A DNA stretch of 64,000 nucleotides, taken from IMG/VR virus record IMGVR_UViG_3300029319_000007; one strand, written 5' to 3'. Source of the DNA: a virus. Shown here in pieces: positions 30,626-62,913 of the stretch. The notes below the pieces were generated by a model. It saw nothing but the letters and a program-made list of their open reading frames with translations. It made no database searches and had not been told where the DNA came from. A program made the translations under genes and the position numbers. Numbering within the stretch: the first letter of the stretch is position 1; every line of letters begins with the position of its first letter.

Positions 30626-31131
30626 CTATACACCTCGTAGTTTATGTTTATGTTTATCTTTGCTGAATGATCAGTTTGACTAACTGATCTGTGTGGTAGG
30701 TCACCATCAAATATTATCGCATTATTCTCAACTGCATTAAATATAGTGCCATTTTCAAATTCTGTATAACCATTGTTTGTATTGATTGATAATAATAATA
30801 CTTTGTGTTTTGCGTTTTGATCTATATGAAATGCACTTTTGAAAGGTTCATTTTGATAAGGATATAAATTAACTTTTGATCTAATTACTCTTATTATTCT
30901 ATGTTCTTCACCTAATCTATTAATAATAGGTTGCATAATCATATGATGTAATTTAGGGTCTGATACTTTTTCATATTTAACAATTAACATGTGTGTAAGT
31001 AAACTACCTAGTGTTATATCTTCTGCTGTTCCTACATGCTCTTGTCTATAAAACGGAAAATTAGAAGACATTAATAAGTCTTGTATTTCTTTGAAATAAT
31101 TTTCAGATAAAAAATTTTCTATTTGTTTCAT
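30622..31131 (-). CDS. 2OG-Fe(II) oxygenase-like protein
   Basis: FHID...NGYT.F...N..IIFDG..PH. Confidence 0.7.
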   Translation of the reverse strand: MKQIENFLSENYFKEIQDLLMSSNFPFYRQEHVGTAEDITLGSLLTHMLIVKYEKVSDPKLHHMIMQPIINRLGEEHRIIRVIRSKVNLYPYQNEPFKSAFHIDQNAKHKVLLLSINTNNGYTEFENGTIFNAVENNAIIFDGDLPHRSVSQTDHSAKINININYEVYR

Positions 31132-31271
31132 TTTTTAAACATCTTCGAAACTACCTTAATAGGATTTCTCAATGCCTCATATACTTTCCATATCTTATCA
31201 ATATGAATATCTAATTTTTTATTAAGATCATCTATCTTTTTTTCTATGCGTTTTAAATCTTCTTTACTCAT
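31128..31271 (-). CDS. Small coiled-coil protein (47 aa, MSKEDLKRIEKKIDDLNKKL...), absent from the ORF track
   Basis: Translated by hand; start overlaps the uvsY stop and stop overlaps the next ATG. Confidence 0.7.
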   Translation of the reverse strand: MSKEDLKRIEKKIDDLNKKLDIHIDKIWKVYEALRNPIKVVSKMFKK

Positions 31272-31699
31272 TACATACTGCCCATAGTAAACTTTTTCCA
31301 TTCTATTGCATTTTTAATTTGAAATGTGCGATTGTTTATTTGTTTTAGTGTGCTTTCACAATAGTGACATATCTGTTTAAGATATTCTATCTTTTGTCTT
31401 AGTTTAATTATCTCATCATCACTATCAATAAACTTATCTACATCTTGTCGTAATACTTTTAGATCAAAGTTTTTTTCTTTGTATTCTTCAGGTTCTGCTT
31501 TACCTGTAAAAAACAACCATTTTTTTATGTGTAGTTTAGAATAGTCACCCTCTGCCTTTTTTAACATGAGAGCATATGTTGAATATGTTTTTAGATATTG
31601 AGAATGTAGTTGTGGTGTCTTTAGACTTTCTAAGTCTAATTCAGTATCGTCTATCTTCAAATCTTTTTCGGCCTGCGCCTGTAGTTCATCAAGTGTCAT
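31271..31699 (-). CDS. uvsY: Recombination mediator UvsY
   Basis: DLKID...ESL..P.LHS.YL, R.FQIKNAIEW.KF. Confidence 0.92.
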   Translation of the reverse strand: MTLDELQAQAEKDLKIDDTELDLESLKTPQLHSQYLKTYSTYALMLKKAEGDYSKLHIKKWLFFTGKAEPEEYKEKNFDLKVLRQDVDKFIDSDDEIIKLRQKIEYLKQICHYCESTLKQINNRTFQIKNAIEWKKFTMGSM

Positions 31700-45728: not shown

Positions 45729-48332
45729 TTATCCTAATGCTATCGCTTGTGCAATTGCAAAAGAAGAAGACGCTTTTGCGTCTAATTGTGTTTGAATATT
45801 ACTAGAAACTCCATCTAAATGCCCTATTTCAGTAGAGGTTACGGCACTTACAGATACATCACCACTACCGTCTGAAACTAATGCTCTTGAAGCAGTTAAG
45901 TTTTCCATCTTACTAAACGCAATAGCAGCACTAGATTTAATGTCTGCATTTACTAAGTTTGTAATAGTGTTATTATCACTATCAATACTTTTGTTTGTAA
46001 GTGTATCAGTTGTTGCTTTACCTACTAAGGTATCAGTTGCATTTGGTAATGATACTGTTCTATCTGCTGTTGGGTCTACAACTGTTAATGTAGTTTCAAA
46101 ACTATCATTTGTTGCACCTTCAAATATCATAACTGCGTCTTCAAGTAAAGTTAATGAAGTACCTACAGTTGGCGTATTAATGATAGGACTTGTTAATGTT
46201 TTGTTTGTAAGTGTTTGACTTGCTGCAAGACCAACAAAACTCTCACTTTGTAATGCACTATTAAATTCTGATAAAGAACCAGTAAGTGTATTGTTTGCTA
46301 AATCAATAGATTTATTTGTGAGTGTTTCTGAACCTGTTAAAGAAGCAAAACTTTCTGATTGTAAAGCAGAGTTAAATTCTGCAAGTGAACCTGTAAGTGT
46401 ATTATTTGCTAAATCAATAGATTTATTTGTTAATGTATCAGTTGTTGCCTTACCTACTAATGTGTCAGTTGCGTTAGGTAATGTAATCGTTCTATCAGCA
46501 GTTGGATCTGTGACAGCAAGAGTTGTTTCAAAACTGTCTGCTGTACTACCTTCAAATACAATACTTGATGAGAAGACACCTGCTGATGTCACCTCTGATA
46601 AATTACCAGTTGTAATTACTGTACCTGAAACATTAGGAAAAGTTATTGTTCTATCTGCTGTTGGATCTGTGACAGCAAGAGTTGTTTCGAAACTATCTGC
46701 TGTGCTACCTTCGAATACAATAGTTGGACTATTGATTGTAGGTGAATTGATTGTAGGACTTGTTAATGTTTTATTTGTTAATGTATCAGTTGTTGTTTTA
46801 CCTACTAGTGTATCTGTAGTTGCAGGTAATGTTAAAGTTATATTGCCTGCAAACGCTGAGTGTGCTGGTGCTTGTAATCTAGCATAGTGTGCATTACTAC
46901 TTTCACAATAAAAATCTATTCGTGATTGTGTGCCACTATTTTTAAGTGATATAGAACCACTTTGTATATCTACATTACCATCTAATCTTACAACACCTGA
47001 ACCGTTAGGTGTAATTGCAATATTTCTATTCGAAGCAGATACGATAGCACTTGTTTCTACATCTAAGTCACCACCTAAACTAGGCGAACTATCGTCTGAA
47101 ACATTTGATAGACCTGCACCTGAAGCAGCAGTTGCTGATATAAATGATAAATTACCTGAACCGTCTGTTGCAAGTAGTTGATTTGCGTCACCATCATTAT
47201 TAGGTAAAACAAAACTTATATTACCTGAAATACTAGGCGAAACTAATGAAACATAATGTGAACCATCACTTGGGTCATATAATCTTAAACCTGCACTAGA
47301 AAAAGTACCTTTCGTGATTGATAAATCACCTGTAGTTGCACCAGTAAATGTACCAGTACCTACTGTAAACTCGTCAGCACTTTCATCAAAACCTATAAAG
47401 ACATTTGCACTACTACCTCTTTCACCTACAAGACCTACATCGCCTGAAGGTGTGCCAGATGTGCCAGTTGCTAATTCTATAAGTTTATCAGAAACAGTTG
47501 TATTAGTTGTAGATACAGTTGTTGTTGTACCATTGACTGTTAAATTACCTGTGACTGTTAGATTACCACCTATTGTCGGGTTATCTACAATACCTACTGT
47601 GACTGTACCTGAACTCTCTGCAACTGTAGTTTCATTTGTTGTACCAGCAAATGTTAATGTGCCACCTAATGATATAGCACTTGTATTAGAACCGTCTGAA
47701 ACTGTGATTGATGAATTACTTAATTTAGAATTGCCTATACTACCTGCAAGTTTAGAAGCAGCAATAGATCCTGCCAACATAGTATTTGTGACTGAACCTG
47801 TATCACCTGTAGTGACAATTGTACCTGTGACATTAGGTATTGTAATTGTTCTATCTGCTGTTGGGTCTGTGACTGTTAATGTTGTTTCAAAACTATCTGC
47901 TGTACTACCTTCAAATATAAAACTACCAGTTGTTGTTGCATTACCTGTAATCGCAGGTGTTGTTAATGTAGGACTTGTTAATGTTTTGTTTGTAAGTGTT
48001 TTAGATGTGCCAGAAAATAAAGTATCTAATTGTGCAAGTGTGACACGACCTTCAGTACCACCGTCTGATAATAAAAGTTTATCAGTTGTTGCTAGTGTTG
48101 CACTTTCTAGGTTAGTTGCACCGTCAATATTTACGATTGCCTCTACATTACCAAACTCTAATGCACTTGCACCAGAATTTACTTTTAATACTTGACCTGC
48201 ACTACCTATTGATAATGATACACCAAGACCACCATGTGTTAGACCTACAGTATCACCTGATTGAAATTCTGCTAGTCCTGTTGCGACATTACTGTCGTTA
48301 AAGACGGCTCTGATTGGTTTTTTATCTGCCAT
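45729..48332 (-). CDS. Thr/Ser-rich fibre-like virion protein with internal repeats
   Basis: Four FEG.T.DSFETTL.V.DPTADRT repeats and many TLTNK repeats. Confidence 0.8.
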   Translation of the reverse strand: MADKKPIRAVFNDSNVATGLAEFQSGDTVGLTHGGLGVSLSIGSAGQVLKVNSGASALEFGNVEAIVNIDGATNLESATLATTDKLLLSDGGTEGRVTLAQLDTLFSGTSKTLTNKTLTSPTLTTPAITGNATTTGSFIFEGSTADSFETTLTVTDPTADRTITIPNVTGTIVTTGDTGSVTNTMLAGSIAASKLAGSIGNSKLSNSSITVSDGSNTSAISLGGTLTFAGTTNETTVAESSGTVTVGIVDNPTIGGNLTVTGNLTVNGTTTTVSTTNTTVSDKLIELATGTSGTPSGDVGLVGERGSSANVFIGFDESADEFTVGTGTFTGATTGDLSITKGTFSSAGLRLYDPSDGSHYVSLVSPSISGNISFVLPNNDGDANQLLATDGSGNLSFISATAASGAGLSNVSDDSSPSLGGDLDVETSAIVSASNRNIAITPNGSGVVRLDGNVDIQSGSISLKNSGTQSRIDFYCESSNAHYARLQAPAHSAFAGNITLTLPATTDTLVGKTTTDTLTNKTLTSPTINSPTINSPTIVFEGSTADSFETTLAVTDPTADRTITFPNVSGTVITTGNLSEVTSAGVFSSSIVFEGSTADSFETTLAVTDPTADRTITLPNATDTLVGKATTDTLTNKSIDLANNTLTGSLAEFNSALQSESFASLTGSETLTNKSIDLANNTLTGSLSEFNSALQSESFVGLAASQTLTNKTLTSPIINTPTVGTSLTLLEDAVMIFEGATNDSFETTLTVVDPTADRTVSLPNATDTLVGKATTDTLTNKSIDSDNNTITNLVNADIKSSAAIAFSKMENLTASRALVSDGSGDVSVSAVTSTEIGHLDGVSSNIQTQLDAKASSSFAIAQAIALG
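46071..47920 (-). repeat. Intragenic direct repeats in the fibre gene
   Basis: Related ~60-90 bp units near 46071, 46501, 46661 and 47861; tandem NKSIDLANNTLTGSL.EFNSALQSESF duplication at about 46240-46435. Confidence 0.75.
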
Positions 48333-49501: not shown

Positions 49502-49867
49502 CTATCTTGTGACATTTGGTCTAACTGTCACTATCCCTTGTATTGGTCTTGTTATTGTACTATCAGAAGCAGTAATCTCAACATCATACACATATCTACC
49601 TTCTTCTAGAGCAGCAGTTTGTGTAGATGTTAAACTTAAAGTAATCTTACCAGTTGATGTATCTGAATCTATTGCAGTAGTAAAAGATGTTGATGATGAA
49701 GATGAATATGATTTACGAATCTGTGCCGCTGCTGAATAACCTGATAAATTAAGAATACTATCGTCTTGATATACTGTGATAACTGTACTAAATGTTGCAC
49801 CTTGATCCATTGTCAAATTTGCAATGGCAGCGACATTTGGGGCAGTCGTGACTGTGGTTGTTGGCAT
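49502..49867 (-). CDS. Ig/BppU-like virion structural protein
   Basis: ANL..DQGATF...AQIRK...GRYVYDVEI; CATAAATA at 49896-49889. Confidence 0.7.
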   Translation of the reverse strand: MPTTTVTTAPNVAAIANLTMDQGATFSTVITVYQDDSILNLSGYSAAAQIRKSYSSSSSTSFTTAIDSDTSTGKITLSLTSTQTAALEEGRYVYDVEITASDSTITRPIQGIVTVRPNVTR

Positions 49868-49891: not shown

Positions 49892-50566
49892 TTATGCTTT
49901 TTTCGCCGCCTTACCTCTAAACCATGCAGGTAAACCCACATGAGGTCTTCCATCATATATGTTATCTTCTGCACCTTTTGTTTTCGCATTATTGTAATGT
50001 AAGAAAACTTGACCACAATCTTCACCTTCAAATGCTTCACGCCAATGTTCACATAGATTACCTTTGTAAACTAACATATCTCCAGGTTTTAAGACAACTT
50101 TTTTACCGTCAGTCATATCTGAATGATACCTACCATCTTTTGCATAACCTTTTTTAGGATCATTTTCAATATAGATTGGCCATGGATCACCACCTAGATT
50201 TATAGTTGTTGAAATCTCACATGAGTATCTATCTTTATGTCTTTTCAACACATCACCTTTTTTATAGATACGAGCATATGAATATGTAGGTATTAAACTC
50301 ATACCTGTATGTTTTTCCATAACAGGTTGTGTCTTTAATAATAAAGTGTCCATTGCAATATCGCAATAGTGTGAGTATGTGTTTGGTACTTGTTCGTCAG
50401 ACCATACACCCCATTCTTCTGTAAATGGTGAAATAAATCTTTCATCAAACATTGTTCTTGCAACTTGTCGTTTCATTAAAAAATAATTATAGACAAATTC
50501 TGCTACTTTAGGTTCTACTGCTTTTTTAATTACAATATAATTGTTTTTATCAAATTCTGTTTTCAT
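49892..50566 (-). CDS. 2OG-Fe(II) oxygenase
   Basis: RHKDR...EHWRE...QVFLHY. Confidence 0.85.
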   Translation of the reverse strand: MKTEFDKNNYIVIKKAVEPKVAEFVYNYFLMKRQVARTMFDERFISPFTEEWGVWSDEQVPNTYSHYCDIAMDTLLLKTQPVMEKHTGMSLIPTYSYARIYKKGDVLKRHKDRYSCEISTTINLGGDPWPIYIENDPKKGYAKDGRYHSDMTDGKKVVLKPGDMLVYKGNLCEHWREAFEGEDCGQVFLHYNNAKTKGAEDNIYDGRPHVGLPAWFRGKAAKKA

Positions 50567-51276
50567 TGTCCTTTTACTCCGTTTACAATCTGATTGCGAA
50601 TTGCTTGAATATTAAAATGTATAAATCTAAAATCTTCATAACCATCATGTAAAGAATATTGATGTGGCATGTAAGAATTAAAAAATATTAATGTGCCAGG
50701 TTTAGGTACATAGTGTACTTTTTCATTTGCATAAGATAATTTAGTTGTATCTTTCTGTTTTAATCCTGTCATCAATGCACCTGGTCTAGGATCATGAAAA
50801 ATAGGTATTGATGTATTAGGTGAACATTTAAGATAATAAAAACCTGATATGTGATTATCAGAATGAATGTGTGTGTTATGATGACCGCCACCATGTTTAC
50901 TAAATTCTTGTACCCAACACTCTGTAAAAAACATTGTGTAATTAGACATATCAAAACCTTGTTCATCTAATATATTTCTTGCTGTATTACCACAATAATC
51001 AACAAACTCACTTAATGCAGGATCTCTTTCAATAGGTCCTGAATGATAAGACATGCCGTGATCTTTTACAGCATTATAATGTTTTGTGCCTAATTCTTTT
51101 TTTCTTTTTTCTTGGTGAGGTTTTTCTCTTTTGTATGCTTCTTTTATATGTTTGTCACATGCTTTATCAATTTTTTTAACCCATTGAGGTTTTTCAATTG
51201 TATATACAGGACAAGAAAAATAATTCTGTGTTTCTAATGTATCTATTTCATTTGTGTTATTAGTCAATAATGCCAT
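50563..51276 (-). CDS. Putative 2OG-Fe(II) oxygenase (HxH type)
   Basis: THIH...ISGFYYL..F.DPRP...FNSYMPH. Confidence 0.85.
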   Translation of the reverse strand: MALLTNNTNEIDTLETQNYFSCPVYTIEKPQWVKKIDKACDKHIKEAYKREKPHQEKRKKELGTKHYNAVKDHGMSYHSGPIERDPALSEFVDYCGNTARNILDEQGFDMSNYTMFFTECWVQEFSKHGGGHHNTHIHSDNHISGFYYLKCSPNTSIPIFHDPRPGALMTGLKQKDTTKLSYANEKVHYVPKPGTLIFFNSYMPHQYSLHDGYEDFRFIHFNIQAIRNQIVNGVKGQ

Positions 51277-51279
51277 AAT

Positions 51280-51939
51280 CTATCTCCATGGTTGTCCTAG
51301 ATTCCAAACTACTAATGAATATCTAGTTCCTTTTGTCACTGGTGCAACTCTATGCCACACAAAACTTGGAAAAACAATAATAGAACCACGAGGTCTAATC
51401 TCTGTACATTCATGTATTGCTTTCTTTTTATCTTGTTCCCAATCTTTTTGATTTCTCATATCAAATTCTAAATTACCACCTGTATACTCATCAGGTTCAG
51501 ACAATGATATCGTCACAGATAACTTTCTTATTTTACCGTGTGAGTTAGGATCATCTGGTTTATTATAAGGAACATCCCAACTATCACAATGCCAACCATA
51601 ATATTGACCAGGACCATATCTTGTGAATTGACAAGATTCAGAAAAATCCCAATCAAAGTTCCAACCTGCTTTTTCGTTTGCTTCTCTAACATATGGATGT
51701 ATTTCTTTATACAACCATGCGTCATTCATCCAAACGATATCAGATTTTCTTTTTACATGAAGTTTTTTAAGTGCTGACTTTTTGAAAGTGCCGTCTTTCT
51801 TAACATTGTTTTCGTTTGCTTCTGCACCACCTGTGACAGCAATTTCAGGTTTGTGTCTTTTTCCATATTCAATTATTTCATCACATGTACGAGGAGTTAA
51901 TGCTGATTGAAAATAATAATAGTAGTTTCTTAAATTCAT
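51280..51939 (-). CDS. PKHD/prolyl-4-hydroxylase-like 2OG-Fe(II) oxygenase
   Basis: YGWHCD, RKLSVT, Y.GG.L, FPSFVWHRVAPVTKGTRYSLV. Confidence 0.92.
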   Translation of the reverse strand: MNLRNYYYYFQSALTPRTCDEIIEYGKRHKPEIAVTGGAEANENNVKKDGTFKKSALKKLHVKRKSDIVWMNDAWLYKEIHPYVREANEKAGWNFDWDFSESCQFTRYGPGQYYGWHCDSWDVPYNKPDDPNSHGKIRKLSVTISLSEPDEYTGGNLEFDMRNQKDWEQDKKKAIHECTEIRPRGSIIVFPSFVWHRVAPVTKGTRYSLVVWNLGQPWR

Positions 51940-51984
51940 TTTATAATCACCTTTTTAATATATAGTAGTCTTAAAAAAGACTAA

Positions 51985-53427
51985 TTAATTCTGATACTTA
52001 TATCTAATTATAACGACACCTGATCCACCTGCAAGACCATTACCTCCTGGAGCAGCAGCACCTGGTCCGCCTGAACCTCTATTTGCTGTACCAGCAGTTC
52101 CTGCCGCTGTACCACCTGTTCCAGCAGTACCGTCACCACAGTTACCTCTTGCGGCACCTCCGCCAGCATAACCTACACTTGAACCTGTAATTTGTGTGGT
52201 TGCACCATTACCGCCAGGTCCACCTGTATTAGTTCCTGTCATACCACCTCTTGCGGCAATACCGCCTCCGCCGCCTCCGCTTTGGTCGCCTGAACCTGGA
52301 TTGCCTGGGTGTATGCCACCAGCACCACCTTTACTACCTTGTTCAGGACTTACAGGAGGTGTATTACCTGCACCACCGCCTCTTGCACAAGTACCTGGGC
52401 CGGTACCACCTCCGCCGCCTCCACCGCCGCTTCCGCCGGGTTGACCTGGAAAGATTGTACCATTACCTGGAGGAGAACCTCCTCCTCCACCTCCGCCACC
52501 TGCGGATGTGATTGTACTGAAAACTGAATTACCACCATTTGATCCTATTGATGGTGGTTGTGGCGTTGAAGGATGTCCTGTGCCTGCGGATCCTCCTCCA
52601 CCTACTGTGATTGGATATGTTGCAGCTGGAACTGCAAGACCATCTGGTGCGACAATTGGACTTGGTGAAGAAGTGTATGAATCAAATGCTGGTGCTTTAC
52701 CTTCACGATAACCTCCAGCACCTGCACCGCCACCACGGTTACTTGCTTGAGATCCTCCACCTCCACCGCCGCCTCCAACGACTAGATAAGAAACTTTATT
52801 ACTACCTGAGGCATTACCAGCACACGAAACTATAAAGTTTGCGTCACCAGTAAATGTATGTATTTTAAAATCACCTGATGTAGTGACTGTGCCGCCTGTA
52901 GCAGTCACATATTTTGAAGTGAGATTAGCAACATTACTTTCATTTGTAAATAACCAACCTTTTGTTGAATCAATGTAAACTAGTGTTAGAGAAGCACGAT
53001 TTGTGTCTATTACAGCGTCAACAGCAACACCTTGTATGTTGTGACTATTTCTTTGAATAGTAAGATTATTTGTACCAAAGTTAGCAGCATAATCTTTGAT
53101 TGATACCATATCTCCTGCACTTGCACTTGCAGGTAATTTTACAAGACCAGCAGCACTTGAATTATTTACGAAATATCCTCTACCTGCAACCATAGTAGTG
53201 ACTGTACTTCCGTCTGATACAACGACTGCTTGCCATTGAACAGGCGGTACAGTACCACTTGCACCTAGTGCTATTGACTGTCCGTTTACTGTAATACTTG
53301 AATTTGATAATTTTGCATTAGCGATTGAACCCGCTAATTTTGCACTTGTTATAGTACCAGGTGCGATATCTGCCGCTGCTACTGAACAATCTACTAAACC
53401 TTTTGTGCCTATCTGATCTACTGCCAT
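51985..53427 (-). CDS. Gly/Pro-rich adhesin/fibre paralogue 1
   Basis: Shared N-terminal module and polyglycine C-terminal domain ending GGSGVVIIRY; TATAAATA at 53440-53433. Confidence 0.85.
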   Translation of the reverse strand: MAVDQIGTKGLVDCSVAAADIAPGTITSAKLAGSIANAKLSNSSITVNGQSIALGASGTVPPVQWQAVVVSDGSTVTTMVAGRGYFVNNSSAAGLVKLPASASAGDMVSIKDYAANFGTNNLTIQRNSHNIQGVAVDAVIDTNRASLTLVYIDSTKGWLFTNESNVANLTSKYVTATGGTVTTSGDFKIHTFTGDANFIVSCAGNASGSNKVSYLVVGGGGGGGGSQASNRGGGAGAGGYREGKAPAFDSYTSSPSPIVAPDGLAVPAATYPITVGGGGSAGTGHPSTPQPPSIGSNGGNSVFSTITSAGGGGGGGGSPPGNGTIFPGQPGGSGGGGGGGGTGPGTCARGGGAGNTPPVSPEQGSKGGAGGIHPGNPGSGDQSGGGGGGIAARGGMTGTNTGGPGGNGATTQITGSSVGYAGGGAARGNCGDGTAGTGGTAAGTAGTANRGSGGPGAAAPGGNGLAGGSGVVIIRYKYQN

Positions 53428-53444
53428 AATACTATTTATACCCC

Positions 53445-54839
53445 TTATGATCCTTCTTGATATCTATATCTTAAAACTACTATACCTGAACCACCATTCG
53501 AACCTGCGGCACCTGAACCAGTTGCACCACCGCCACCGCCTCCTCTATTTGCTGTGCCTGCTGTACTTGCTTGTGGTGTTGAAGGTCCGCCACCAGTACC
53601 ACCTCCGCCTGGACCACCGGCACCAGGACCACAAGGTGAACCGCCACCGCCACCACCTGCATAAGTGACTGACGAAGCAGTTATTGAGTTTGCAGTACCA
53701 TTACCCCCATTACCTCCAGCATTAGAAGCATCGGGACCTGGTGTGCCTGCAGTAGCAGCACCGCCGCCACCTCCACCACCATCACCACCCGAAGGTGGGT
53801 ATGGCGCACCATTACCACCATTGTTGCCTTGAGGTGGACTTACTGGCGGTGTATTACCTGTACCACCTGTTTTAGTGCTGCCACCTTTGGCACCACCGCC
53901 ACCTGATCCGCCATTTTGGCCTGCACCGTATGAACCGTTTGCGTCTGAACCACCTCCACCTCCCCCAGCAGATGTGATCGTACTAAAAACTGAATTTGAA
54001 CCGTTGCCACCATAATTGTTTGCTGGTGGACCTTTACCTGCACCGCCACCACCTACTGTGATAGGATAAGTTGTTGCTGATGATAATGTTAAACCACAAC
54101 CAGGAAAATCATGTCTGAATCCTCCTGCACCTCCACCACCAGAGTTATCACAACCTCCGCCACCACCACCGGCGACTACAAGATATTGAACTTTATTTGT
54201 ACTACCAGTACCAACACCATTTGCTAAAGTAGAAACAATAAAGTTTCCACTACCAGTGAATGTGTGTATCTTATCATTACCTGATGTTGTGATCGTACCA
54301 CCTGTCGCAGTTAGATATTGGGGTCCTTGTAAATTTCCTACATTGTGTTCATCTGTGAATAACCAACCTTTTGTACTATCTACATAAACTAAAACAACAC
54401 TAGCACGATCAGTTTCTAATATTGCGTCAGCAGCAGTACCTTGTATGTTGTGACTATTTCTTTGTATTGTTAAATTATTAGTGCCAAAGTTTTCTGAATA
54501 ATCTTTTATTGCAATTGTATCACCTCGTGAAGCACTCGCAGGTAATTTTACTAAACCTGCAGCACTAGCGTTATCTACGAAATAACCACGACCTGCGACC
54601 ATAGTAGTCACAGTAGAACCGTCTGATGTAATCTTTGATTGCCAATCTTGTAAATTAAGAGCGTTATCAGAACCACCTAGTGATATTGCCTCACCACCTA
54701 TTGTGATTGTGGTATTTGCTAGTTTATCATTACCTATAGAACCTGCTAGTTTTGCATTAGTAATAGTGCCAGGGGCAAAATCTGCTGCCGCTACTGAGCA
54801 ATCTACAATGCCTCTAGAACCTATCTTAGAAATCGCCAT
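53445..54839 (-). CDS. Gly/Pro-rich adhesin/fibre paralogue 2
   Basis: Same architecture; TATAAATA at 54852-54845. Confidence 0.85.
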   Translation of the reverse strand: MAISKIGSRGIVDCSVAAADFAPGTITNAKLAGSIGNDKLANTTITIGGEAISLGGSDNALNLQDWQSKITSDGSTVTTMVAGRGYFVDNASAAGLVKLPASASRGDTIAIKDYSENFGTNNLTIQRNSHNIQGTAADAILETDRASVVLVYVDSTKGWLFTDEHNVGNLQGPQYLTATGGTITTSGNDKIHTFTGSGNFIVSTLANGVGTGSTNKVQYLVVAGGGGGGCDNSGGGGAGGFRHDFPGCGLTLSSATTYPITVGGGGAGKGPPANNYGGNGSNSVFSTITSAGGGGGGSDANGSYGAGQNGGSGGGGAKGGSTKTGGTGNTPPVSPPQGNNGGNGAPYPPSGGDGGGGGGGAATAGTPGPDASNAGGNGGNGTANSITASSVTYAGGGGGGSPCGPGAGGPGGGGTGGGPSTPQASTAGTANRGGGGGGATGSGAAGSNGGSGIVVLRYRYQEGS

Positions 54840-54854
54840 GAAACTATTTATAAT

Positions 54855-55379
54855 TTATGATACACTTATATCCCAAGATATTATTCTTTTAATTTTCTTA
54901 CTTTCATTAGGTGGACTAAAATGTTGAATAAATTGAGGTACTACAACGATTGTGCCTTCTTGTACTGGTATAGGATAATATACTGTTCTATCAGATACAT
55001 AATCATTCCAAGGTTGCATATAGTTTGTCATAGGTGCGTCTTTAGGTTGATCAAGATATAATATACCCGATAGACCTGTTGAACCGTGATTATGTACAGA
55101 ATGATAATCACCTTTCTTATAACTTACTGACCATGCGTCATCTATTCTAATATCTCTTTGAAGTTTATCAGATAACATTGTTAATTCTTCTTCTAGTATA
55201 ACAATTAAATCTTCTTTAAATTGAATACGAGGCGATTGTCTGTTTGTAGAAAAAGTTTGTATGCCATGTTTACTTTCAGGATGTCTTTTACATAGTGATT
55301 GTAATTTCTTTTTCTTTTCTTTAAAGTTTATAGTAGGTATTGTCCAATAAGGTATATTGAACATTGTCTCTTGAATCAT
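54855..55379 (-). CDS. Putative 2OG-Fe(II) oxygenase (HxH type)
   Basis: VHNHG..GLSGILYL...QHFSPP...RIISW. Confidence 0.8.
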   Translation of the reverse strand: MIQETMFNIPYWTIPTINFKEKKKKLQSLCKRHPESKHGIQTFSTNRQSPRIQFKEDLIVILEEELTMLSDKLQRDIRIDDAWSVSYKKGDYHSVHNHGSTGLSGILYLDQPKDAPMTNYMQPWNDYVSDRTVYYPIPVQEGTIVVVPQFIQHFSPPNESKKIKRIISWDISVS

Positions 55380-55588
55380 TCTTCTTCTCCTGCACCACTA
55401 ATTATGCTCATGACAGTATCAAAATTTTCTTCTACTGTCCAACTATTATCAGGCGTCCATAGTGTTGTATGTTTACCCTCATCAGATTTCATTACATCTT
55501 CAAAAATAGATTGTACTTTTGTTATGTCGATTGCAAGTTTTTTACCTTCAAAAGGTGCACTTGCATTTGTAAATATTCTAAACTTCAT
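55376..55588 (-). CDS. Hypothetical protein (70 aa)
   Basis: AGGAG SD; coupled to the downstream oxygenase. Confidence 0.7.
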   Translation of the reverse strand: MKFRIFTNASAPFEGKKLAIDITKVQSIFEDVMKSDEGKHTTLWTPDNSWTVEENFDTVMSIISGAGEEE

Positions 55589-55597
55589 TATATACTC

Positions 55598-56227
55598 CTA
55601 AAAATAAGTTTCTGGTAATTGTTTTCTGTTCATTATTCTTAAATTTCCTGATACACTTACTCTTGTACAATCAGATTTATATGGTAAAACCCAATGTTGT
55701 AGTAATGCAGGAAAAATATACATATCACCTGTTTGAGGTAATATTGCATGACCTGTTGTTGCCCATGGTGGGCGTGACATAGTGCCATATTCAAATTGCA
55801 AAGAACCTGGTTTTGTTCCTGTGCCTTCAAACTCTTTTATTTCTTTTTCTATTTCTTCAGGTACATCTACAAATATAACAAAAGAAAAATCACCACCATG
55901 TGTATGTAAAGGATTAAAATCACCTGGTCTCATAAAGTTAACCCATAAATCATCATATGCAATATGCACTTCTCTTTTTTCTAAACCGTGATATTCTAAA
56001 TGACCTTGTCTATATGCGTCAAAAATAGGGGATACTTGTTTATAAAACCAATCTGTGGTTTCATCATTATACTTGACTTGTCTTTTTACATGACCTGCAA
56101 GTTTCTTGTGATAAGATTCTAAATCTTTCTTACCGTCTTCGTGTAGTCTTTCTATTATATGATTGTCTATCTTTGTTGATCCTACATAAGGACCCCAATG
56201 TAAATAACGCATATTAATATTTTTCAT
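55598..56227 (-). CDS. Putative 2OG-Fe(II) oxygenase (HxH type)
   Basis: FNPLHTH...SFVIF...IFPA.LQHWV.P...RVSVSGN. Confidence 0.85.
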   Translation of the reverse strand: MKNINMRYLHWGPYVGSTKIDNHIIERLHEDGKKDLESYHKKLAGHVKRQVKYNDETTDWFYKQVSPIFDAYRQGHLEYHGLEKREVHIAYDDLWVNFMRPGDFNPLHTHGGDFSFVIFVDVPEEIEKEIKEFEGTGTKPGSLQFEYGTMSRPPWATTGHAILPQTGDMYIFPALLQHWVLPYKSDCTRVSVSGNLRIMNRKQLPETYF

Positions 56228-56270
56228 TTCAAATCACCTTTATATTATATAGTAGTCTAAAAAAAGACTA

Positions 56271-57713
56271 TTATTGAGACTTGTATCTTATGATAACAAT
56301 TCCTGAACCACCTGCAGCACCTGGCGCACTATTACCGCCTGACGCCCCACCAGCACCACCTCCTGTATTAGCAGAACCTGCATTACCGTTTTGTGTTGCT
56401 TGAGGTGTTGGTGAACCTTGAGTGACACCGTAACCACCAGCACCACCGCCACCTGAACCGCCTGCCGCTTGAACTGGTGCAAAAGGCGAAACACTTGGGT
56501 TATTCGAATAACGAGAACCCCCACCGCCGCCACCTGCTCGTGTGACATTTGAACCTGTTATAGTATTTGGTGAACCAGCGCCACCTGCACCTCCACCACC
56601 AGGAGATGAATCTCCATTACCAGCAGCGCCACCTGCACCGCCACCACCTCCACTTGTTGCTTGAGGAGTAGGTCCTGTGCCTGTGCCACCATTATTACCT
56701 TGTGAAGGACTTACTGGAGGTGTGTTGCCTGAACCACCTGATGTGCCTGGTCCACTTGCACCCCCACCTGATCCGCCATCACTACCATTTGTGACTTCTT
56801 TACCACCTTTACCACCACCAGTAGATGTAATTGTTGAGAAAACTGAATTTGATCCATTACCAGCACAGTTTGCAAAAGCGTTTGGCGCCCCAGCAGTACC
56901 ACCTGCACCTACTGTAATAGGATATGTTTGAACTGATACAGGAAAAGCACCTGCATTACAACCAGGACTAGGAAAAGATGTTCTATGACCACCTGCACCT
57001 CCGCCACCGCCACCTGATCCGCCACCACCAGCGACTACTAAGTAATCTACTGCTGTTGACCCAGCAGGTAAACCTGCGTTTGATACGACAAAGTTTCCAT
57101 CACCTGTAAATGTGTGAACTCTAAAATCTCCTGTTGTTGTGACTGTGCCACCTGTTGCCTCTACAAAAGGTGTTTGTAAAGAAGTAATATTACTTTCATT
57201 ATAATACAACCAACCTTTTGTTGCGTCAACATATACTAATCTGATTGACGCTTTATCTGTTTTTAATAAACCATTAGCAGTATTACCTTGTATCTTATGA
57301 CCATTGCGATTAATTGTCACACCATTTGAACCAAATGTGCCTGCATAATCTTTTATTGCGATATAATGACCTGCACTTGCACTACTAGGTAATGTGACTG
57401 TGTGTGTTGCTGATGATGTATCTATAAAATAACCACGACCTGAAACCATTGTAGTCGTTGTAGATCCGTCTGCTGTTATAACTGCTTGCCAATCTATAGT
57501 TGGCACACTACCTGAAGCACCTAATGTTATTGATTGACCACCAACTGTTATAGCACTATTTGCCAATTTAGCGTTTGCAATAGAACCTGCAAGTTTTGCT
57601 GTTGCGATAGAACCTGGTGCAATATCTGCTGTTCTTAATGTTCCGTCATCAATCTTTGCTGCTGTGACTGAACTATCTGTTAAACCTGATGTTGTGACTT
57701 TAGTTATTGCCAT
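56271..57713 (-). CDS. Gly/Pro-rich adhesin/fibre paralogue 3
   Basis: Same architecture. Confidence 0.85.
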   Translation of the reverse strand: MAITKVTTSGLTDSSVTAAKIDDGTLRTADIAPGSIATAKLAGSIANAKLANSAITVGGQSITLGASGSVPTIDWQAVITADGSTTTTMVSGRGYFIDTSSATHTVTLPSSASAGHYIAIKDYAGTFGSNGVTINRNGHKIQGNTANGLLKTDKASIRLVYVDATKGWLYYNESNITSLQTPFVEATGGTVTTTGDFRVHTFTGDGNFVVSNAGLPAGSTAVDYLVVAGGGGSGGGGGGAGGHRTSFPSPGCNAGAFPVSVQTYPITVGAGGTAGAPNAFANCAGNGSNSVFSTITSTGGGKGGKEVTNGSDGGSGGGASGPGTSGGSGNTPPVSPSQGNNGGTGTGPTPQATSGGGGGAGGAAGNGDSSPGGGGAGGAGSPNTITGSNVTRAGGGGGGSRYSNNPSVSPFAPVQAAGGSGGGGAGGYGVTQGSPTPQATQNGNAGSANTGGGAGGASGGNSAPGAAGGSGIVIIRYKSQ

Positions 57714-57715
57714 TT

Positions 57716-59221
57716 TTATCCTGACTGATACTTATATCTTACTATTACTACGCCTGAACCTCCAGCGCCGCCTGGGTTAGAACTACCACCACAGAATCCT
57801 GGTGAACTACCTGCACCTCCACCGCCCCCTTTATTAGCAGAACCAGCGTTGCCTGCAGTATTTCCTGATGGACCTGAAGCACCTCCGCCACCAGGACCAG
57901 CAGAACCTTGATCATATGAAACTCCGTGTATCGCACAAGCAGTACCACCGCCACCACCAGCATATCCTACAGGAGAACCTGTGATATGAGTAGTTGCACC
58001 GTTACCGCCATTACCAGCAACACCAGAACCTCCAGCAGAACCACCGTTACCGCCAGCGCCTCCACCACCACCTGAACCTGGTGTGTTAGTCGCATAATTA
58101 CCTTGACCACCTGGATTGCCTTGTGATGGACTCACGGGTGGTGTATTACCTGCACCAACAACTGCTCTTGGAGGTGGACTACTATTTTGTCCTGCACCAC
58201 CGCCTGAACCACCAGCGCCGCCGTCTGCAACTGGATTAGGTTGAGCGTCTCCTTGTTTTGCACCAGAACCGCCACCGGCAGATGTGATTGTACTAAAAAC
58301 TGAATTTGAACCTGCGTTTCCTCTACTACTACCAGGATGTGGACTACCACCTGCACCACCGCCACCTACTGTGACTGGATAAGAACCAGGCGAAGCAGAA
58401 ACAGTTAAACCTGCTGGTGCGTTTAGAGGAGAAACTGTGTATGAAGATTTAGGTGCGTCTTTACCTTCTCTAAATCCTCCAGCACCACCACCGGCGCCAC
58501 CAGCGCCTGCACCTGAACCACCACCTGCAATGACTAGATATGAAACTTTATCCCCACCACCAGCAGAATTACCTACTGACGCAACAGAGAAAGTGCCATC
58601 ACCTGTGAAAGTGTGTATCTTATCATTACCTGAAGTTGTGACTGTGCCACCTGTAGCAGATGTGAATGTTGCTTTTTGTAGATCAGAAACATCATGTTCG
58701 TCTGTGAATAACCAACCTTTTGTACTATCTACATAAACCATTGTGACTGACTTACGATTAGTTTTTAATAAACTATCAGCAGCAAGACCTTGTATGTTAT
58801 GACTATTTCTTTGTACTGTCGTATTATTAGTGCCAAAATTACCAGCATAATCTTTAATAATAATTGTATCACCTCTAGAAGCACTCGCAGGTAATTTTAC
58901 TAAACCAGCAGCACTAGAGTTATCTACAAAATATCCTTGACCTGCAACCATTGTAGTCACAGTAGAACCATCAGAAGTAATCTTTGATTGCCAATCTACA
59001 TCAACACCTACAGTATGTGAACCACCCAAAGAAACTGAGGTTCCTCTAATTGTTATTGCTGAGTTTGCTAATTTTGCATTTGTGATTGCGTCATCTGCTA
59101 ATCTATCTGACGCTACATTACAATCAGGAAAGTCTGCGGCAACAAGAACTCCGTCAGCAACTTTTGCTGCTGTGACAGCACTTGAATCTAATGCGTTTTT
59201 AGGAAGTTTCGTTATTGCCAT
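57716..59221 (-). CDS. Gly/Pro-rich adhesin/fibre paralogue 4
   Basis: Same architecture; TATAAATA at 59234-59227. Confidence 0.85.
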   Translation of the reverse strand: MAITKLPKNALDSSAVTAAKVADGVLVAADFPDCNVASDRLADDAITNAKLANSAITIRGTSVSLGGSHTVGVDVDWQSKITSDGSTVTTMVAGQGYFVDNSSAAGLVKLPASASRGDTIIIKDYAGNFGTNNTTVQRNSHNIQGLAADSLLKTNRKSVTMVYVDSTKGWLFTDEHDVSDLQKATFTSATGGTVTTSGNDKIHTFTGDGTFSVASVGNSAGGGDKVSYLVIAGGGSGAGAGGAGGGAGGFREGKDAPKSSYTVSPLNAPAGLTVSASPGSYPVTVGGGGAGGSPHPGSSRGNAGSNSVFSTITSAGGGSGAKQGDAQPNPVADGGAGGSGGGAGQNSSPPPRAVVGAGNTPPVSPSQGNPGGQGNYATNTPGSGGGGGAGGNGGSAGGSGVAGNGGNGATTHITGSPVGYAGGGGGTACAIHGVSYDQGSAGPGGGGASGPSGNTAGNAGSANKGGGGGAGSSPGFCGGSSNPGGAGGSGVVIVRYKYQSG

Positions 59222-59229
59222 ATGACTAT

Positions 59230-59790
59230 TTATATCAATTGATAGTGAGTTGATAAATTTACAAGAAACCCACTATTTTTGTTTGTTTCAATATAATGTT
59301 CAATATCTGAACTAAACAATATAAATTGATTATATTTTATCTCTTGTTTCCACAATCTATGTTTATTTCTACCATCATCATATTTAAATATCACATTACA
59401 TGGTTCTGGTGTTTCTGATACACAATATAAACAAGATATATCTGGTGAGTTTTCTAAATCCCATGGATTTACATGATTATGATAATTAATATTTTCACCT
59501 GATTGTTGAATGATTGCTCGAACATTTAAATCTGTTTTAGTTGGAGGAACAAGTGTTCTACCATGCAATTCTCTAAAATGATCTCTTATGTAATCAAAGA
59601 ACCATTGTATGTGTTGATGATACGGTAAAGCGATATAATCATCTAAATGCCAAAATTGATCGTCTGTAAGTTTGTTTTCTAAACTAAAATTAGTTAAACA
59701 ATGATTTTCAATTAGTTTTGGTTTTAAAAATGAGATATCACTTACCGTACCTGCGACTAAAAATTTTTCGCTTAAAAGTATTTTTTCCAT
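59230..59790 (-). CDS. Divergent 2OG-Fe(II) oxygenase-like protein
   Basis: YHNH...ILFSSDIEHYI. Confidence 0.6.
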   Translation of the reverse strand: MEKILLSEKFLVAGTVSDISFLKPKLIENHCLTNFSLENKLTDDQFWHLDDYIALPYHQHIQWFFDYIRDHFRELHGRTLVPPTKTDLNVRAIIQQSGENINYHNHVNPWDLENSPDISCLYCVSETPEPCNVIFKYDDGRNKHRLWKQEIKYNQFILFSSDIEHYIETNKNSGFLVNLSTHYQLI

Positions 59791-59808
59791 AACAACACCA
59801 TAACAATC

Positions 59809-60348
59809 TTATTGTGCAGCCCAAGATTTAGATGAACTATTCCATTCATATACTTTTGAAGTATCTGAACTTGCAGGTCTAGTTGCTTCCCAACCTTTTG
59901 CATTGTTTGCTTGATATGCTGCTTCATCCCAATAGATACTATATCTTTGAGTTGAACTATCTGTTTCTGTATAAGTCTCTACAGTTGGATAAGTTATTGG
60001 TGCATCCCAACCAGCAGTTGATGTATTCTTCGACCAACTAGTATATGGTTGTGGACCAAAAAATAATTGATTATCTTCATCCCATGAGTAACCTACACCT
60101 GCATAGTTGCCTCTAAATGCTTTTGATTGATCACTAGACAGATTGCCATCAGCGTCATAGTGTTTTCCACCTCTAGTGTTATAAGATGTTTGAATCCACA
60201 TTTGGGCAGGCCATCCGTGTATCTCTTGTAATCTTTGTTGACCTACTGATTCATCTTCTTGATTATCAGCATTCAACATATCACTATTATTCAAAACATG
60301 AACAGCGATTACTTTACCGTTCACACCTAGTTTTGCAAAATGTGCCAT
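59809..60348 (-). CDS. MAHFA-type fibre-associated protein (possible assembly chaperone)
   Basis: MAHFAKL...WIQTSYN...FRGNYAG.GY.WD...F..PQPY.SW; AAGGAG SD. Confidence 0.7.
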   Translation of the reverse strand: MAHFAKLGVNGKVIAVHVLNNSDMLNADNQEDESVGQQRLQEIHGWPAQMWIQTSYNTRGGKHYDADGNLSSDQSKAFRGNYAGVGYSWDEDNQLFFGPQPYTSWSKNTSTAGWDAPITYPTVETYTETDSSTQRYSIYWDEAAYQANNAKGWEATRPASSDTSKVYEWNSSSKSWAAQ

Positions 60349-60410
60349 TTTATTCTCCTTTTAATTATGAACTACCTCTCACAAGTCAGTCCAATATTAT
60401 ACTAAACTAT

Positions 60411-61829
60411 TTATTGAAACTTGTATCTAATAATGACAACACCTGAACCACCAGCAGAACCTGCCTGTGCCCCCGAAGCACCGCCTCCACCACCGCCTCT
60501 ATTTGCAGTAGCAGATGTTGCTGCTGAACCGTTATCAGCACCATTACCTGCACCAGTACCACCGGTGCCTTTCGAAGTGTTCCAAGTAGGATTACTTAGA
60601 CCACCACCGCCACCGCCGCCACTATAAACTACAGGCGAACCAGTAATGTGATTTGTTGCACCAGCACCTCCAGCACCAGCAGCATTTCCTGGCACATTTA
60701 AATCTGCACCATCATTACCACTACCAGAACCACCGCCTGCACCACCTCTTACAGAAGGCACACTGCCTTGATTACCTCGACCACCGTCACCTCCTTGAGG
60801 CGGACTCACAGGTGGTGTATTACCATTACCTCGTCCTTGATTCCAACCGCCGCCACCGCCAGATCCACCATTCTCAGCAGAATCGCCAGGACCACCTGAT
60901 CCTCCTCTACCGCCACCAGCGGATGTGATTGTTGAGAAAACTGAATTTGAACCACTTGCACTTGAACTAGGTCCAGGTGCAGCACCGCCACCACCTACTG
61001 TGATAGGAAAAGTTGCTGCTGTAATTGGAACACCTGATGTTGAACTATTTGGGTGTACAGTATATGAACCATGATTACCTGTTTTAGCAGAACGAAGACC
61101 TCCGCCTCCACCTCCACCTGCTTGTTCACCGGGTGTGTTTCCACCACCGCCGCCACCAGCAAGAACAAGATAATCAATAGTGTTATTAGGTCCTAAATTT
61201 GATACAACAAAGTTTCCATCACCAGTAAATGTATGTATCTTCTCATCACCTGATGTTGTGATTGTACCACCTGTAGCAACAATTTGTGTTTGTAAATCTG
61301 CAACATTTGATTCTACTATAACTAACCAACCCTTTGTTGCGTCAATGTAAACATATGTGACTGCTGCTCTGTTTGTTTTTATTTCTTGATCATTAGCAAC
61401 ACCTTGAATGTTATGACCATTTCTCTGAACTGTTAAACTGTTTGTGCCAAAATTACCAGCATAGTCTTTTACAATAATAGTATCGCCTGCACTAGCACTA
61501 GCAGGTAGTTTTACTAAACCTGCCGCACTTGAATTATTTACGAAATATCCTCTACCCGCCACCATTGTAGTCACAGTAGAACCATCTGAAACAACAACTG
61601 ACTGCCATGCTATTTTACCTACATCAGCAGAAGCACCTAATGCTGTTGCTGAACTATTAATAGTAATCGATTCGTTTGCTAATTTTGCGTTTGCAATAGA
61701 ACCTGCTAATTTTGCATTTGTTAAAGTACCTGGTGCAAAATCAACATTAGCAAGACCACCATCTGCTACTTCAGTAGTAGTGATTGATTCGTCTGTTAAT
61801 CCGTTTGTTGTGACTTTTGTTAAGGGCAT
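60411..61829 (-). CDS. Gly/Pro-rich adhesin/fibre paralogue 5
   Basis: Same architecture; start revised to 61829 (MPLTKVTT) by homology with the paralogues. Confidence 0.85.
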   Translation of the reverse strand: MPLTKVTTNGLTDESITTTEVADGGLANVDFAPGTLTNAKLAGSIANAKLANESITINSSATALGASADVGKIAWQSVVVSDGSTVTTMVAGRGYFVNNSSAAGLVKLPASASAGDTIIVKDYAGNFGTNSLTVQRNGHNIQGVANDQEIKTNRAAVTYVYIDATKGWLVIVESNVADLQTQIVATGGTITTSGDEKIHTFTGDGNFVVSNLGPNNTIDYLVLAGGGGGGNTPGEQAGGGGGGGLRSAKTGNHGSYTVHPNSSTSGVPITAATFPITVGGGGAAPGPSSSASGSNSVFSTITSAGGGRGGSGGPGDSAENGGSGGGGGWNQGRGNGNTPPVSPPQGGDGGRGNQGSVPSVRGGAGGGSGSGNDGADLNVPGNAAGAGGAGATNHITGSPVVYSGGGGGGGLSNPTWNTSKGTGGTGAGNGADNGSAATSATANRGGGGGGASGAQAGSAGGSGVVIIRYKFQ

Positions 61830-61830
61830 A

Positions 61831-62913
61831 TTATACTGCTGTTGTAGGCACTCCGTCTGATGAAACAAATGGGTGTTCAGCTATAGCCCACATTAACATT
61901 GTATCAGAACCGCCATTTATTTTTTGGTTATTACCTCTTATCTTGATACCATTACTACAAAAATCTAAAACAGTTGAAGTTGAAACACTATCGTGGGCAT
62001 TGTTTAAGTTTATGTATAATTGAATATTTTTAGGGTTGAAAGGATGCCTTTCACTATCCCAAACTGTTTTATCTCTTGAACCACTTTCACCATTTATTAT
62101 GATACAATATTTTGGTTTAAATCCTAGATATACAAATGGTGCTGAAGCACCAGATTGTGATTGACCTTCATATCTTACCACTTTTGAATAACCTGGTATG
62201 TTTCGAAAACAATACATGATATAATTATCACCATCTGAATTTGTACCACTATTTGTTCCTACTGTCACATTAGTTGAATCTGGTTTTGTGCTGTTAAATG
62301 CAGTTGCATTTGTAGCAAGTGGGTCTGTATTGTTCATATAAATTATTTGATTATCATTATCCATAACATCTGTCCAATGTGAGAACCAAGAGTTGCCACC
62401 ACCACCTCTATTTTTTACTATAACTAAATTAGGTGCTGCACCTAAACCATGTGCAATCGTTCCGTTAGAACCTGTTCCTACATAATCAATAATTGAAAAA
62501 CCTGCTGTAGTATTTGTTTGTCTATTACCACCAGGATTAGAACCACTTTCGTTAAAAGATGTTGTTGTACCACCATTACATTTCCATTGCCAAGCAACAT
62601 AAGTTGCACTCGATTGGTTATAGTTTTGGTCAGTCGAATCTACATCAAAACCATTTGTTTCAAAAGTAAATTTAGCAGGACTATGTGTATCCTCTGCGTC
62701 AGTTTCATGAAACTTTAATTGTTTATCAGAACCTCTATTTGAATCAAAGACGACATGATTGTCTGCTAAACTTGTAGGTTTAACCCACAACCAGTCGGGT
62801 TTAAAATCACCTGCGTTAGCAGAATTTCTAACTTGTAATCCACTACTACCACTACCTGTGTAATGATTGATAGTGAAGTATTCTGAAGGATCATCTATTG
62901 TTGTATATGCCAT
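61831..62913 (-). CDS. Tail-fibre-associated beta-rich protein
   Basis: MAYTTIDDPS..F...YTG, FKPDW.W.K, YVAWQW, HGLG.AP, AE.PFV motifs. Confidence 0.75.
   Translation of the reverse strand: MAYTTIDDPSEYFTINHYTGSGSSGLQVRNSANAGDFKPDWLWVKPTSLADNHVVFDSNRGSDKQLKFHETDAEDTHSPAKFTFETNGFDVDSTDQNYNQSSATYVAWQWKCNGGTTTSFNESGSNPGGNRQTNTTAGFSIIDYVGTGSNGTIAHGLGAAPNLVIVKNRGGGGNSWFSHWTDVMDNDNQIIYMNNTDPLATNATAFNSTKPDSTNVTVGTNSGTNSDGDNYIMYCFRNIPGYSKVVRYEGQSQSGASAPFVYLGFKPKYCIIINGESGSRDKTVWDSERHPFNPKNIQLYINLNNAHDSVSTSTVLDFCSNGIKIRGNNQKINGGSDTMLMWAIAEHPFVSSDGVPTTAV

Follow-up and report, generated by a model that had tools for sequence, protein, structure and literature searches.

The stretch from 49892 to 61829 of the DNA studied here (64,000 nucleotides in all, referred to as the window) probably serves an HTVC008M-type SAR11 myophage as its host-recognition module. 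In it, five paralogous genes for predicted glycine-rich receptor-binding fibres (Gly1 to Gly5) are interleaved with the gene of a putative fibre chaperone (C) and with six genes for proteins predicted to have the double-stranded beta-helix (DSBH) fold of the Fe(II)- and 2-oxoglutarate (2OG)-dependent oxygenases. Oxygenases of this kind belong to the most frequent accessory genes in phages of the ocean and, together with their 'ferrochelatase' partners, serve as ecological markers. The reading favoured for those of the window, with a probability of about 0.5, is that they act on a soluble substrate unrelated to the fibres and travel as linked cargo of the fibre module. The enzymes would then be members of the Syn9-type tandem dioxygenase arrays of marine phages, and their substrate may be a host protein or an amino-acid-derived molecule.

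The window comes from an HTVC008M-type, T4-like pelagimyophage, since its major capsid protein and that of Pelagibacter phage HTVC008M share 96.9% identity and it holds a T4-like gene set including portal, sheath, terminase, DNA polymerase, RegA, UvsY and a gp55-like late sigma factor; the last three, at 14106-14537, 31271-31699 and 27182-27742, respectively, are expected for a T4-like phage. All genes of the window lie on the minus strand, and a megablast search of 50,697 phage records returned no nucleotide-level match to the region. The order given by an earlier note, with five Gly-rich and six oxygenase genes interleaved on the minus strand, proved to be exact, and three enzyme units separate the fibres: C-Of, O5-s-O5 (where s is a small open reading frame, ORF) and O3-O5-F. 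The features, with expect values (E) where a family was matched, are the following:

61831-62913, minus strand: DUF7483 protein, upstream flank of the block (PF24299, E 6e-78)
60411-61829, minus strand: Gly5, fibre paralogue of b-type with a Gly_rich_2 domain (PF21722, E 2e-13; alignment; tree)
60349-60410, minus strand: intergenic stretch 5' of C with a TATAAT box and a Shine-Dalgarno site (from the sequence)
59809-60348, minus strand: C, phrog_7759 protein, probable fibre chaperone or partner (phrog_7759, E 3e-31)
59230-59790, minus strand: Of, probable divergent Oxy_5-like DSBH protein with HxH...H (hhalign against the O5 family)
59227-59234, minus strand: late promoter TATAAATA of Gly4, overlapping the Of stop codon, 5 nucleotides (nt) 5' of the ATG
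57716-59221, minus strand: Gly4, fibre paralogue of a-type (Pfam; tree clade with Gly2)
56271-57713, minus strand: Gly3, fibre paralogue of b'-type (Pfam, E 4e-17; tree)
56228-56270, minus strand: first junction element, with a short inverted repeat, a TATAAT box and a Shine-Dalgarno site (from the sequence)
55598-56227, minus strand: O5 oxygenase of Oxy_5 / TIGR02466 type (PF13759, E 5e-14; phrog_81)
55376-55588, minus strand: small ORF of 70 amino acids, conserved in two related loci, L010 and L012 (comparison of loci), with no family match in domain searches
54855-55379, minus strand: O5 oxygenase of Oxy_5 type (PF13759, E 2e-9)
54845-54852, minus strand: late promoter TATAAATA of Gly2, 5 nt 5' of the ATG
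53445-54839, minus strand: Gly2, fibre paralogue of a-type, structure-modelled with AlphaFold2 (AF2; predicted local distance difference test, pLDDT, 87)
53433-53440, minus strand: late promoter TATAAATA of Gly1, 5 nt 5' of the ATG
51985-53427, minus strand: Gly1, fibre paralogue of b-type (Pfam; tree)
51940-51984, minus strand: second copy of the junction element (sequence and pattern search)
51280-51939, minus strand: O3 oxygenase of Oxy_3 type, prolyl 4-hydroxylase- or PKHD-like (PF13640, E 2e-16; conserved residues)
50563-51276, minus strand: O5 oxygenase of Oxy_5 / TIGR02466 type (PF13759, E 6e-14; TIGR02466, 62.6 bits)
49892-50566, minus strand: F, predicted DSBH oxygenase-fold protein named 'ferrochelatase' in databases (phrog_2954; motif; model)
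49502-49867, minus strand: LtfC-like small fibre-region protein, flank of the block (phrog_1084 and phrog_3304)

The five Gly proteins, which share 54-61% pairwise identity in the alignment, all pass the Gly_rich_2 family PF21722 with 40-63 bits against a cut-off of 24.3. By structural matching, the AF2 model of Gly2 consists of two parts, where residues 63-167 resemble the N-terminal attachment region of CBA120 TSP4 (Z 17.4, root-mean-square deviation 1.5) as well as T4 baseplate proteins, while residues 187-463 resemble the Pam3 fibre (Z 15.6, root-mean-square deviation 3.0, 190 residues aligned, 29% identity), the Bxb1 tail tip (Z 14.7) and, to a lesser degree, the glycine-rich domain of ALK/LTK (Z about 7). 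The suggestion that the Gly-rich proteins are virion receptor-binding fibres is supported by these matches, and the model assigns to them a Pam3-gp24-type architecture, with a tumour necrosis factor (TNF)-like and polyglycine-II domain, together with a predicted N-terminal attachment domain like the N-terminal region of CBA120 TSP4 and T4 gp10. In Pam3, the receptor-binding protein, glycine-rich as well as TNF-like, has its chaperone gene just downstream, and the complex of both forms in E. coli (PMC9608196). As regards related proteins, two of the podovirus HTVC033P (gp62 and gp64, locus L081) carry two tandem Gly_rich_2 domains each, every domain with its own NTPP..PPQG motif. Furthermore, an 867-amino-acid fibre protein of the window (45729-48332), built of about five internal repeats of the FEGST-DSFETTL-V-DPTADRT type, has an N-terminal motif, AKLAGSI-N-KL, in common with the five Gly-rich fibres.

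The six enzymes belong to four mutually distant families, and blastp among them finds one weak pair only. All six are nevertheless predicted DSBH oxygenase-fold proteins, as the earlier note had proposed: four pass the Pfam families 2OG-FeII_Oxy_3 (PF13640) or Oxy_5 (PF13759), F is assigned by its fold, and Of as a probable divergent member. O3 has the metal triad H117-x-D119...H196 and the 2-oxoglutarate-binding pair R206-x-S208, and among O3, O5, F and Of the basic residue that binds 2-oxoglutarate is clear in O3 only. Its only solved relatives found by sequence are the PKHD-type proteins PiuC/YbiX (E 2e-5) and its NCBIfam matches all fall far below the cut-offs, for which reasons an assignment of O3 as a collagen-type or viral prolyl 4-hydroxylase is not supported. 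The O5 proteins show HxH...H (H136, H138 and H205), with 3bvc and 2rg4 as the nearest solved relatives of the one at 50563-51276. Of has no Pfam match itself, although its homologue in L012 gives a weak match to PF13759; when compared with the O5 family by hhalign it aligned with a probability of 76% and E 2e-5, the metal motifs being in register. The Of motif is H-N-H...H, its second His being lost in one homologue, and the protein is probably a divergent Oxy_5 member. Sequence searches of the PDB with F and Of gave nothing usable.

The case of F deserves attention because of its name. In the family (phrog_2954) the motif HxD...H, here H110-x-D112...H174, is invariant, and for the AF2 model (pLDDT 86) Foldseek gives 500 or more PDB matches at E <= 0.001, the top-ranked ones listed all being 2OG oxygenases. 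The best are protein hydroxylases, namely PPHD bound to EF-Tu, the Dictyostelium PHD and MINA53, and AlkB is also present. A ferrochelatase (HemH) was discarded, since no Pfam ferrochelatase match was obtained at E <= 0.1, no ferrochelatase occurs among the matches listed and the predicted fold is that of a DSBH oxygenase. Thus, the 'ferrochelatase' of phrog_2954 and T4-GC 615 is, according to the model, a DSBH oxygenase-fold protein, and inferences on haem and iron metabolism drawn from the name are unsafe for that reason. Fused F+O3 proteins were found in the phrog search and in the protein atlas; the only other fused forms of O3 are two singleton proteins with unrelated domains.

Some other annotations are doubtful too. 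SSM1_053, annotated as a 'DNA endonuclease', is an Oxy_3 protein, and the 'DNA endonuclease V' family of cyanophages and pelagiphages (T4-GC 100; 30622-31131 in the window, 9145-9633 in L083 and 10511-11023 in L082) has no Pyr_excise or other Pfam match. Relatives of this family lie directly behind fibre genes in four loci (L008, L017, L038 and L043), and one of them scores just under the Oxy_3 cut-off.

The relation between fibres and enzymes was assessed in a fibre-sampled set of 78 IMG/VR loci and in an O3-sampled set of 75 new loci, of which 66 were informative; overall, the related phage fragments in which both kinds of gene occur number well over a hundred. At the fibre-sampled loci, oxygenases follow within two genes downstream in about half of the arrays, several 'unknown' neighbours being further Oxy_3 proteins, and small ORFs, LtfC-like genes or baseplate genes follow in the other half. 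Among the complete genomes, every Gly_rich_2 gene of HTVC008M, HTVC023P, HTVC033P and Mosig, as well as the single one of S-SM1 and of S-RSM4, lies within two genes of oxygenases. The conserved block of fibre, C and oxygenases is also found in HTVC023P, HTVC033P, Mosig and two cyanophages, and as fibre, C, optionally Of, then O3, O5 and F it is conserved in at least four architectures and two morphotypes.

Nevertheless, the coupling is not obligate, because the enzymes occur without Gly_rich_2 genes, fibres occur without linked enzymes, and the Pam3 fibre folds with its chaperone alone. The cyanophages S-PM2, P-SSM7 and S-H38 contain no Gly_rich_2 gene, yet 9-13 oxygenase hits each; P-SSM7 keeps the O3 orthologue (T4-GC 412) and S-PM2 that of F (T4-GC 615). 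In Melnitz, the oxygenases are at least 15 kb away from three fibre-C pairs, and in S-MbCM100 the oxygenase nearest to the fibre is 14 kb away. Moreover, many IMG/VR fibre arrays have no adjacent oxygenase trio, and each genome has several oxygenase clusters located elsewhere than the fibres. All of this counts for the favoured reading and against a dedicated coupling.

Several observations weigh against this interpretation. The linkage is far tighter than loose cargo predicts, since a gene with the Gly-rich domain stands at most four genes upstream in 64 of the 66 informative O3-sampled loci, the order being fibre, [C], [Of], O3, [O5], F, with the bracketed genes optional. The earlier note had made statistical linkage between Gly-rich genes and oxygenases a test of its proposal, and such linkage was indeed found, both in these loci and in the complete genomes. 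In addition, S-SM1, S-RSM4 and Mosig have one Gly_rich_2 gene each, which adjoins the largest oxygenase cluster, and the putative chaperone C, to judge by the spacing of C, Of and O3, appears to share an operon with the enzymes. Fibres and enzymes were also exchanged together, because O3 and F of the window are closer to their podovirus counterparts (58-64% identity) than to those of HTVC008M (44-46%). The block also occupies a different position in the window from that in HTVC008M, and the fibre-C-oxygenase block moves between pelagiphage podoviruses and myoviruses. To our knowledge, no substrate is on record for any of these enzyme families.

The partner protein C is the other constant of the module. 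It lies directly 3' of Gly_rich_2 genes in HTVC008M, HTVC023P, HTVC033P, S-SM1 and S-RSM4, and three times in Melnitz; altogether it stands behind such genes in 7 of the complete genomes examined, Mosig being the exception, and the gene described as 'chaperone-like' is therefore a near-constant partner of the Gly-rich fibres across complete genomes. By analogy with Pam3 gp25, C may be a fibre chaperone. Pfam and PDB sequence searches gave no likeness of C to gp25, Tfa or any PDB chain, and the protein atlas returned nothing; because C resembles nothing solved, its role is put forward here as a likely one by analogy.

The tightness of the linkage brings in the view that the enzymes serve the fibres themselves, i.e. 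that residues of the Gly-rich fibres are hydroxylated, while C assists their folding, by at least one of the proteins Of, O3, O5 and F. The polyglycine-II / polyproline-II lattice would thereby become more stable, or the receptor-binding loops would be altered, and the decoration would be an optional one in pelagiphages and some cyanophages. This is considered possible but unlikely. The conservation of the block, the operon-like spacing of C, Of and O3 and the joint transfer of fibres and enzymes would all be accounted for; the F+O3 fusions argue that the enzymes work together, and the best structural matches of F are, as stated, protein hydroxylases. There is also a precedent, since dioxygenases have been proposed to modify co-encoded tail-collar and glycine-rich proteins of bacteria (PMC2938197). 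Against these points stand the orthologous enzymes in phages lacking the fibre family, the fibre-C pairs of Melnitz without linked enzymes, and the Pam3 fibre, which assembles in E. coli with gp25 only (PMC9608196). Moreover, O3 is nearest to PiuC/YbiX and O5 to uncharacterised TIGR02466 proteins, not to collagen-type prolyl 4-hydroxylases, and no robust enzyme-fibre fusions were found.

The proline motif, which had been put forward as the hydroxylation target, bears on the same question. GNTPPVSPxQG is invariant in the five Gly proteins, as the earlier note had read, but they are not Pro-rich overall, their proline content being an ordinary 4-6%. In the related loci, NTPPVSPxQG occurs in 64 of 89 linked Gly-rich proteins and is confined to the pelagiphage subfamily, where it is present with or without adjacent enzymes. 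At 11 loci O3 is kept and the motif is missing, as it also is from the cyanophage, Mosig and HTVC008M fibres that lie beside oxygenases. Covariation of motif and enzymes was accordingly rejected, as there are motifs without adjacent enzymes and enzymes without the motif, and TPPVSPxQG is not supported as the target, which counts further against hydroxylation of the fibres.

The expression signals of fibres and enzymes also differ, again a point against the fibres as substrate. The T4-type late promoter TATAAATA stands, exact, 5 nt before the ATG of Gly4, Gly2 and Gly1; two of these promoters, at Gly4 and Gly2, had been noted before, and Gly1 has one too. The window has seven copies altogether, each next to a gene start and on the coding strand. 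The three genes have no Shine-Dalgarno site, and the geometry between TATAAATA and ATG recurs in many related loci; the sequence suggests that the late fibre transcripts are leaderless or near-leaderless. Gly3 and Gly5 are without a promoter of their own and lie 1-2 nt behind the upstream gene (2 nt behind Gly4 in the case of Gly3). The enzyme units, on the other hand, have ordinary Shine-Dalgarno sites and are preceded by short inverted repeats and sigma-70-like boxes. In podovirus-type relatives (L106, L117, L123 and HTVC023P), a sigma-70 consensus (TTGACA/TTTACA, N16-17, TATAAT) lies directly before O3 or C, the junction before C of HTVC023P (L002, 5' of gp63) reading TTTACT-N17-TATAAT. A scan of the region for sigma-70 promoters and terminators was not above shuffled background, so that the promoter class rests on the reading of the junctions, from which we infer that the enzyme units would be transcribed separately from the fibres. 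Separate promoters are no argument against a role shared with the fibre partner, because C, Of and O3 are tightly spaced or overlapping, as in an operon, in many pelagiphages.

With respect to the junctions, the hairpin described after Gly3 and after Gly1 stands as a repeated element, a 24-nt pattern with 2 matches against 0.01 expected, but is weak as a hairpin, since its energy (about -6.5 kcal/mol, z -0.3 to -0.5) is no better than that of shuffles. At the equivalent junctions of relatives the inverted repeats are short, with stems that vary from one lineage to another.

The published interpretation of the Syn9 arrays (Iyer 2010, PMC2938197), which describes them as assembled sets of distant dioxygenases and proposes the tailoring of secondary metabolites, leads to a further reading, where the distant dioxygenases, with the tryptophan halogenase of relatives, act in turn on an amino-acid-derived metabolite or free peptide and their position beside the fibres is incidental. 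The fixed order of several non-paralogous dioxygenases fits this, as do the tryptophan halogenases of relatives; no peptide synthetase, transporter or precursor gene lies within the block, however, and the constant place of the arrays beside the Gly-rich fibre and C is left unexplained, so this reading is regarded as improbable. The halogenases in question are a flavin-dependent one between fibre and O3 (1766-3199 of L044) and HTVC008M gp079 (L001), which stands beside an oxygenase.

Other published proposals, namely nucleic-acid repair or modification and the modulation of 2-oxoglutarate and nitrogen status (Weigele 2007; Sullivan 2010), are very hard to reconcile with the module and were given little credence. 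They can draw on AlkB among the fold matches of F, on Sullivan 2010 (PMC3037559), where 2-oxoglutarate/nitrogen sensing or DNA repair was proposed, and on the 'denV' genes annotated beside O3 in S-SM1, S-RSM4, P-SSM7 and Mosig. The link through 'denV' was dismissed as resting on doubtful annotation, because these proteins (T4-GC 100) have no Pyr_excise match and the neighbouring 'DNA endonuclease' is an Oxy_3 protein; moreover, neither idea explains the conserved place behind the fibre genes.

As for the origin of the array, a single cassette duplicated as a whole, as had been supposed, is ruled out by blastp and by the fibre tree. The enzymes are barely similar to each other, the units behind the two fibre pairs differ (O5-s-O5 and O3-O5-F), and Gly3 and Gly1 belong to different clades, for which reasons the array is better described as a probable mosaic arising from the shuffling of fibre pairs and enzyme units. 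The tree, built of 102 fibres, separates the first genes of the pairs from the second ones: Gly4 and Gly2 fall in one four-row clade (Shimodaira-Hasegawa-like approximate likelihood ratio test, SH-aLRT, 98), Gly1 and Gly5 in one second-type group, and Gly3 in another, together with second fibres from contigs of a different architecture, 'C Of GLY GLY'.

Whatever the mechanism, the fixed enzyme block behind Gly-rich fibres and their partner in pelagiphages provides a concrete candidate substrate. A proposal that must be called doubtful is that, in SAR11 phages and some cyanophages, the polyglycine-II fibres are hydroxylated through an operon coding for C and for three or four Fe/2OG oxygenases unrelated to each other. 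If true, it would be the first system in which enzymes tailor a phage host-recognition protein post-translationally, and those enzyme genes of marine phages that are the most abundant among the unexplained ones would gain a function; what determines host range in the most abundant viruses on Earth would then depend on the supply of oxygen, iron and 2-oxoglutarate. In the literature, no paper was found linking these enzymes to phage fibres, nor anything on what PiuC does or on structural proteins as substrates of cyanophage prolyl hydroxylases; the transcriptome paper on pelagiphages deals with phages other than these. The co-location of oxygenase and 'ferrochelatase' in pelagiphages was reported by Wittmers 2022 (PMC9599517) and treated as a matter of auxiliary metabolic genes; the name 'ferrochelatase' is taken there at face value, the word 'glycine' is absent from the text and the link with fibres is unmentioned. 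Closer to the present case, Iyer 2010 proposed co-encoded tail-collar and glycine-rich proteins as dioxygenase substrates in bacterial operons (PMC2938197).

Among known systems, the nearest to the fibres is Pam3 gp24 with its chaperone gp25 (PDB 7ypx; PMC9608196), which likewise combines a TNF-like sandwich, a polyglycine-II lattice and variable distal loops with a small partner gene directly downstream. The window differs in its N-terminus, where an attachment domain like that of CBA120 TSP4 and T4 gp10 is predicted in place of the helical shaft of Pam3, in having five paralogues, in the NTPPVSPxQG insert on one lattice strand, and in its C protein, without detectable similarity to gp25 or Tfa. 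In the Pam3 paper no oxygenases are mentioned next to the fibre; the genome of Pam3 itself was not searched. A more distant likeness of the fibres is to the gp38 adhesin of phage S16 and the glycine-rich domain of ALK/LTK.

Regarding the enzymes, the viral and bacterial prolyl 4-hydroxylases and the PKHD-type PiuC/YbiX have PF13640, the HxD...H triad and the RxS 2-oxoglutarate site in common with O3 of the window, which differs in remaining below every NCBIfam cut-off. The Syn9-type arrays, with the genes T4-GC 104/240/412/611/615 (Sullivan 2010), hold several mutually distant 2OG oxygenases in tandem, as the window does, O3 being of the T4-GC 412 and F of the T4-GC 615 lineage, and they likewise lie between fibre genes and g13. 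In contrast to them, the array of the window is split into three units interleaved with fibre genes, and no tryptophan halogenase was found in 49892-61829 by Pfam searches. The closest counterpart is the '2OG-Fe(II) oxygenase plus ferrochelatase' pair of HTVC023P-type phages and HTVC033P, which consists of the same O3 and F families, with the 58-64% identity given above, and stands in the same order behind Gly-rich genes and C, although those phages are podoviruses and the window belongs to a myovirus.

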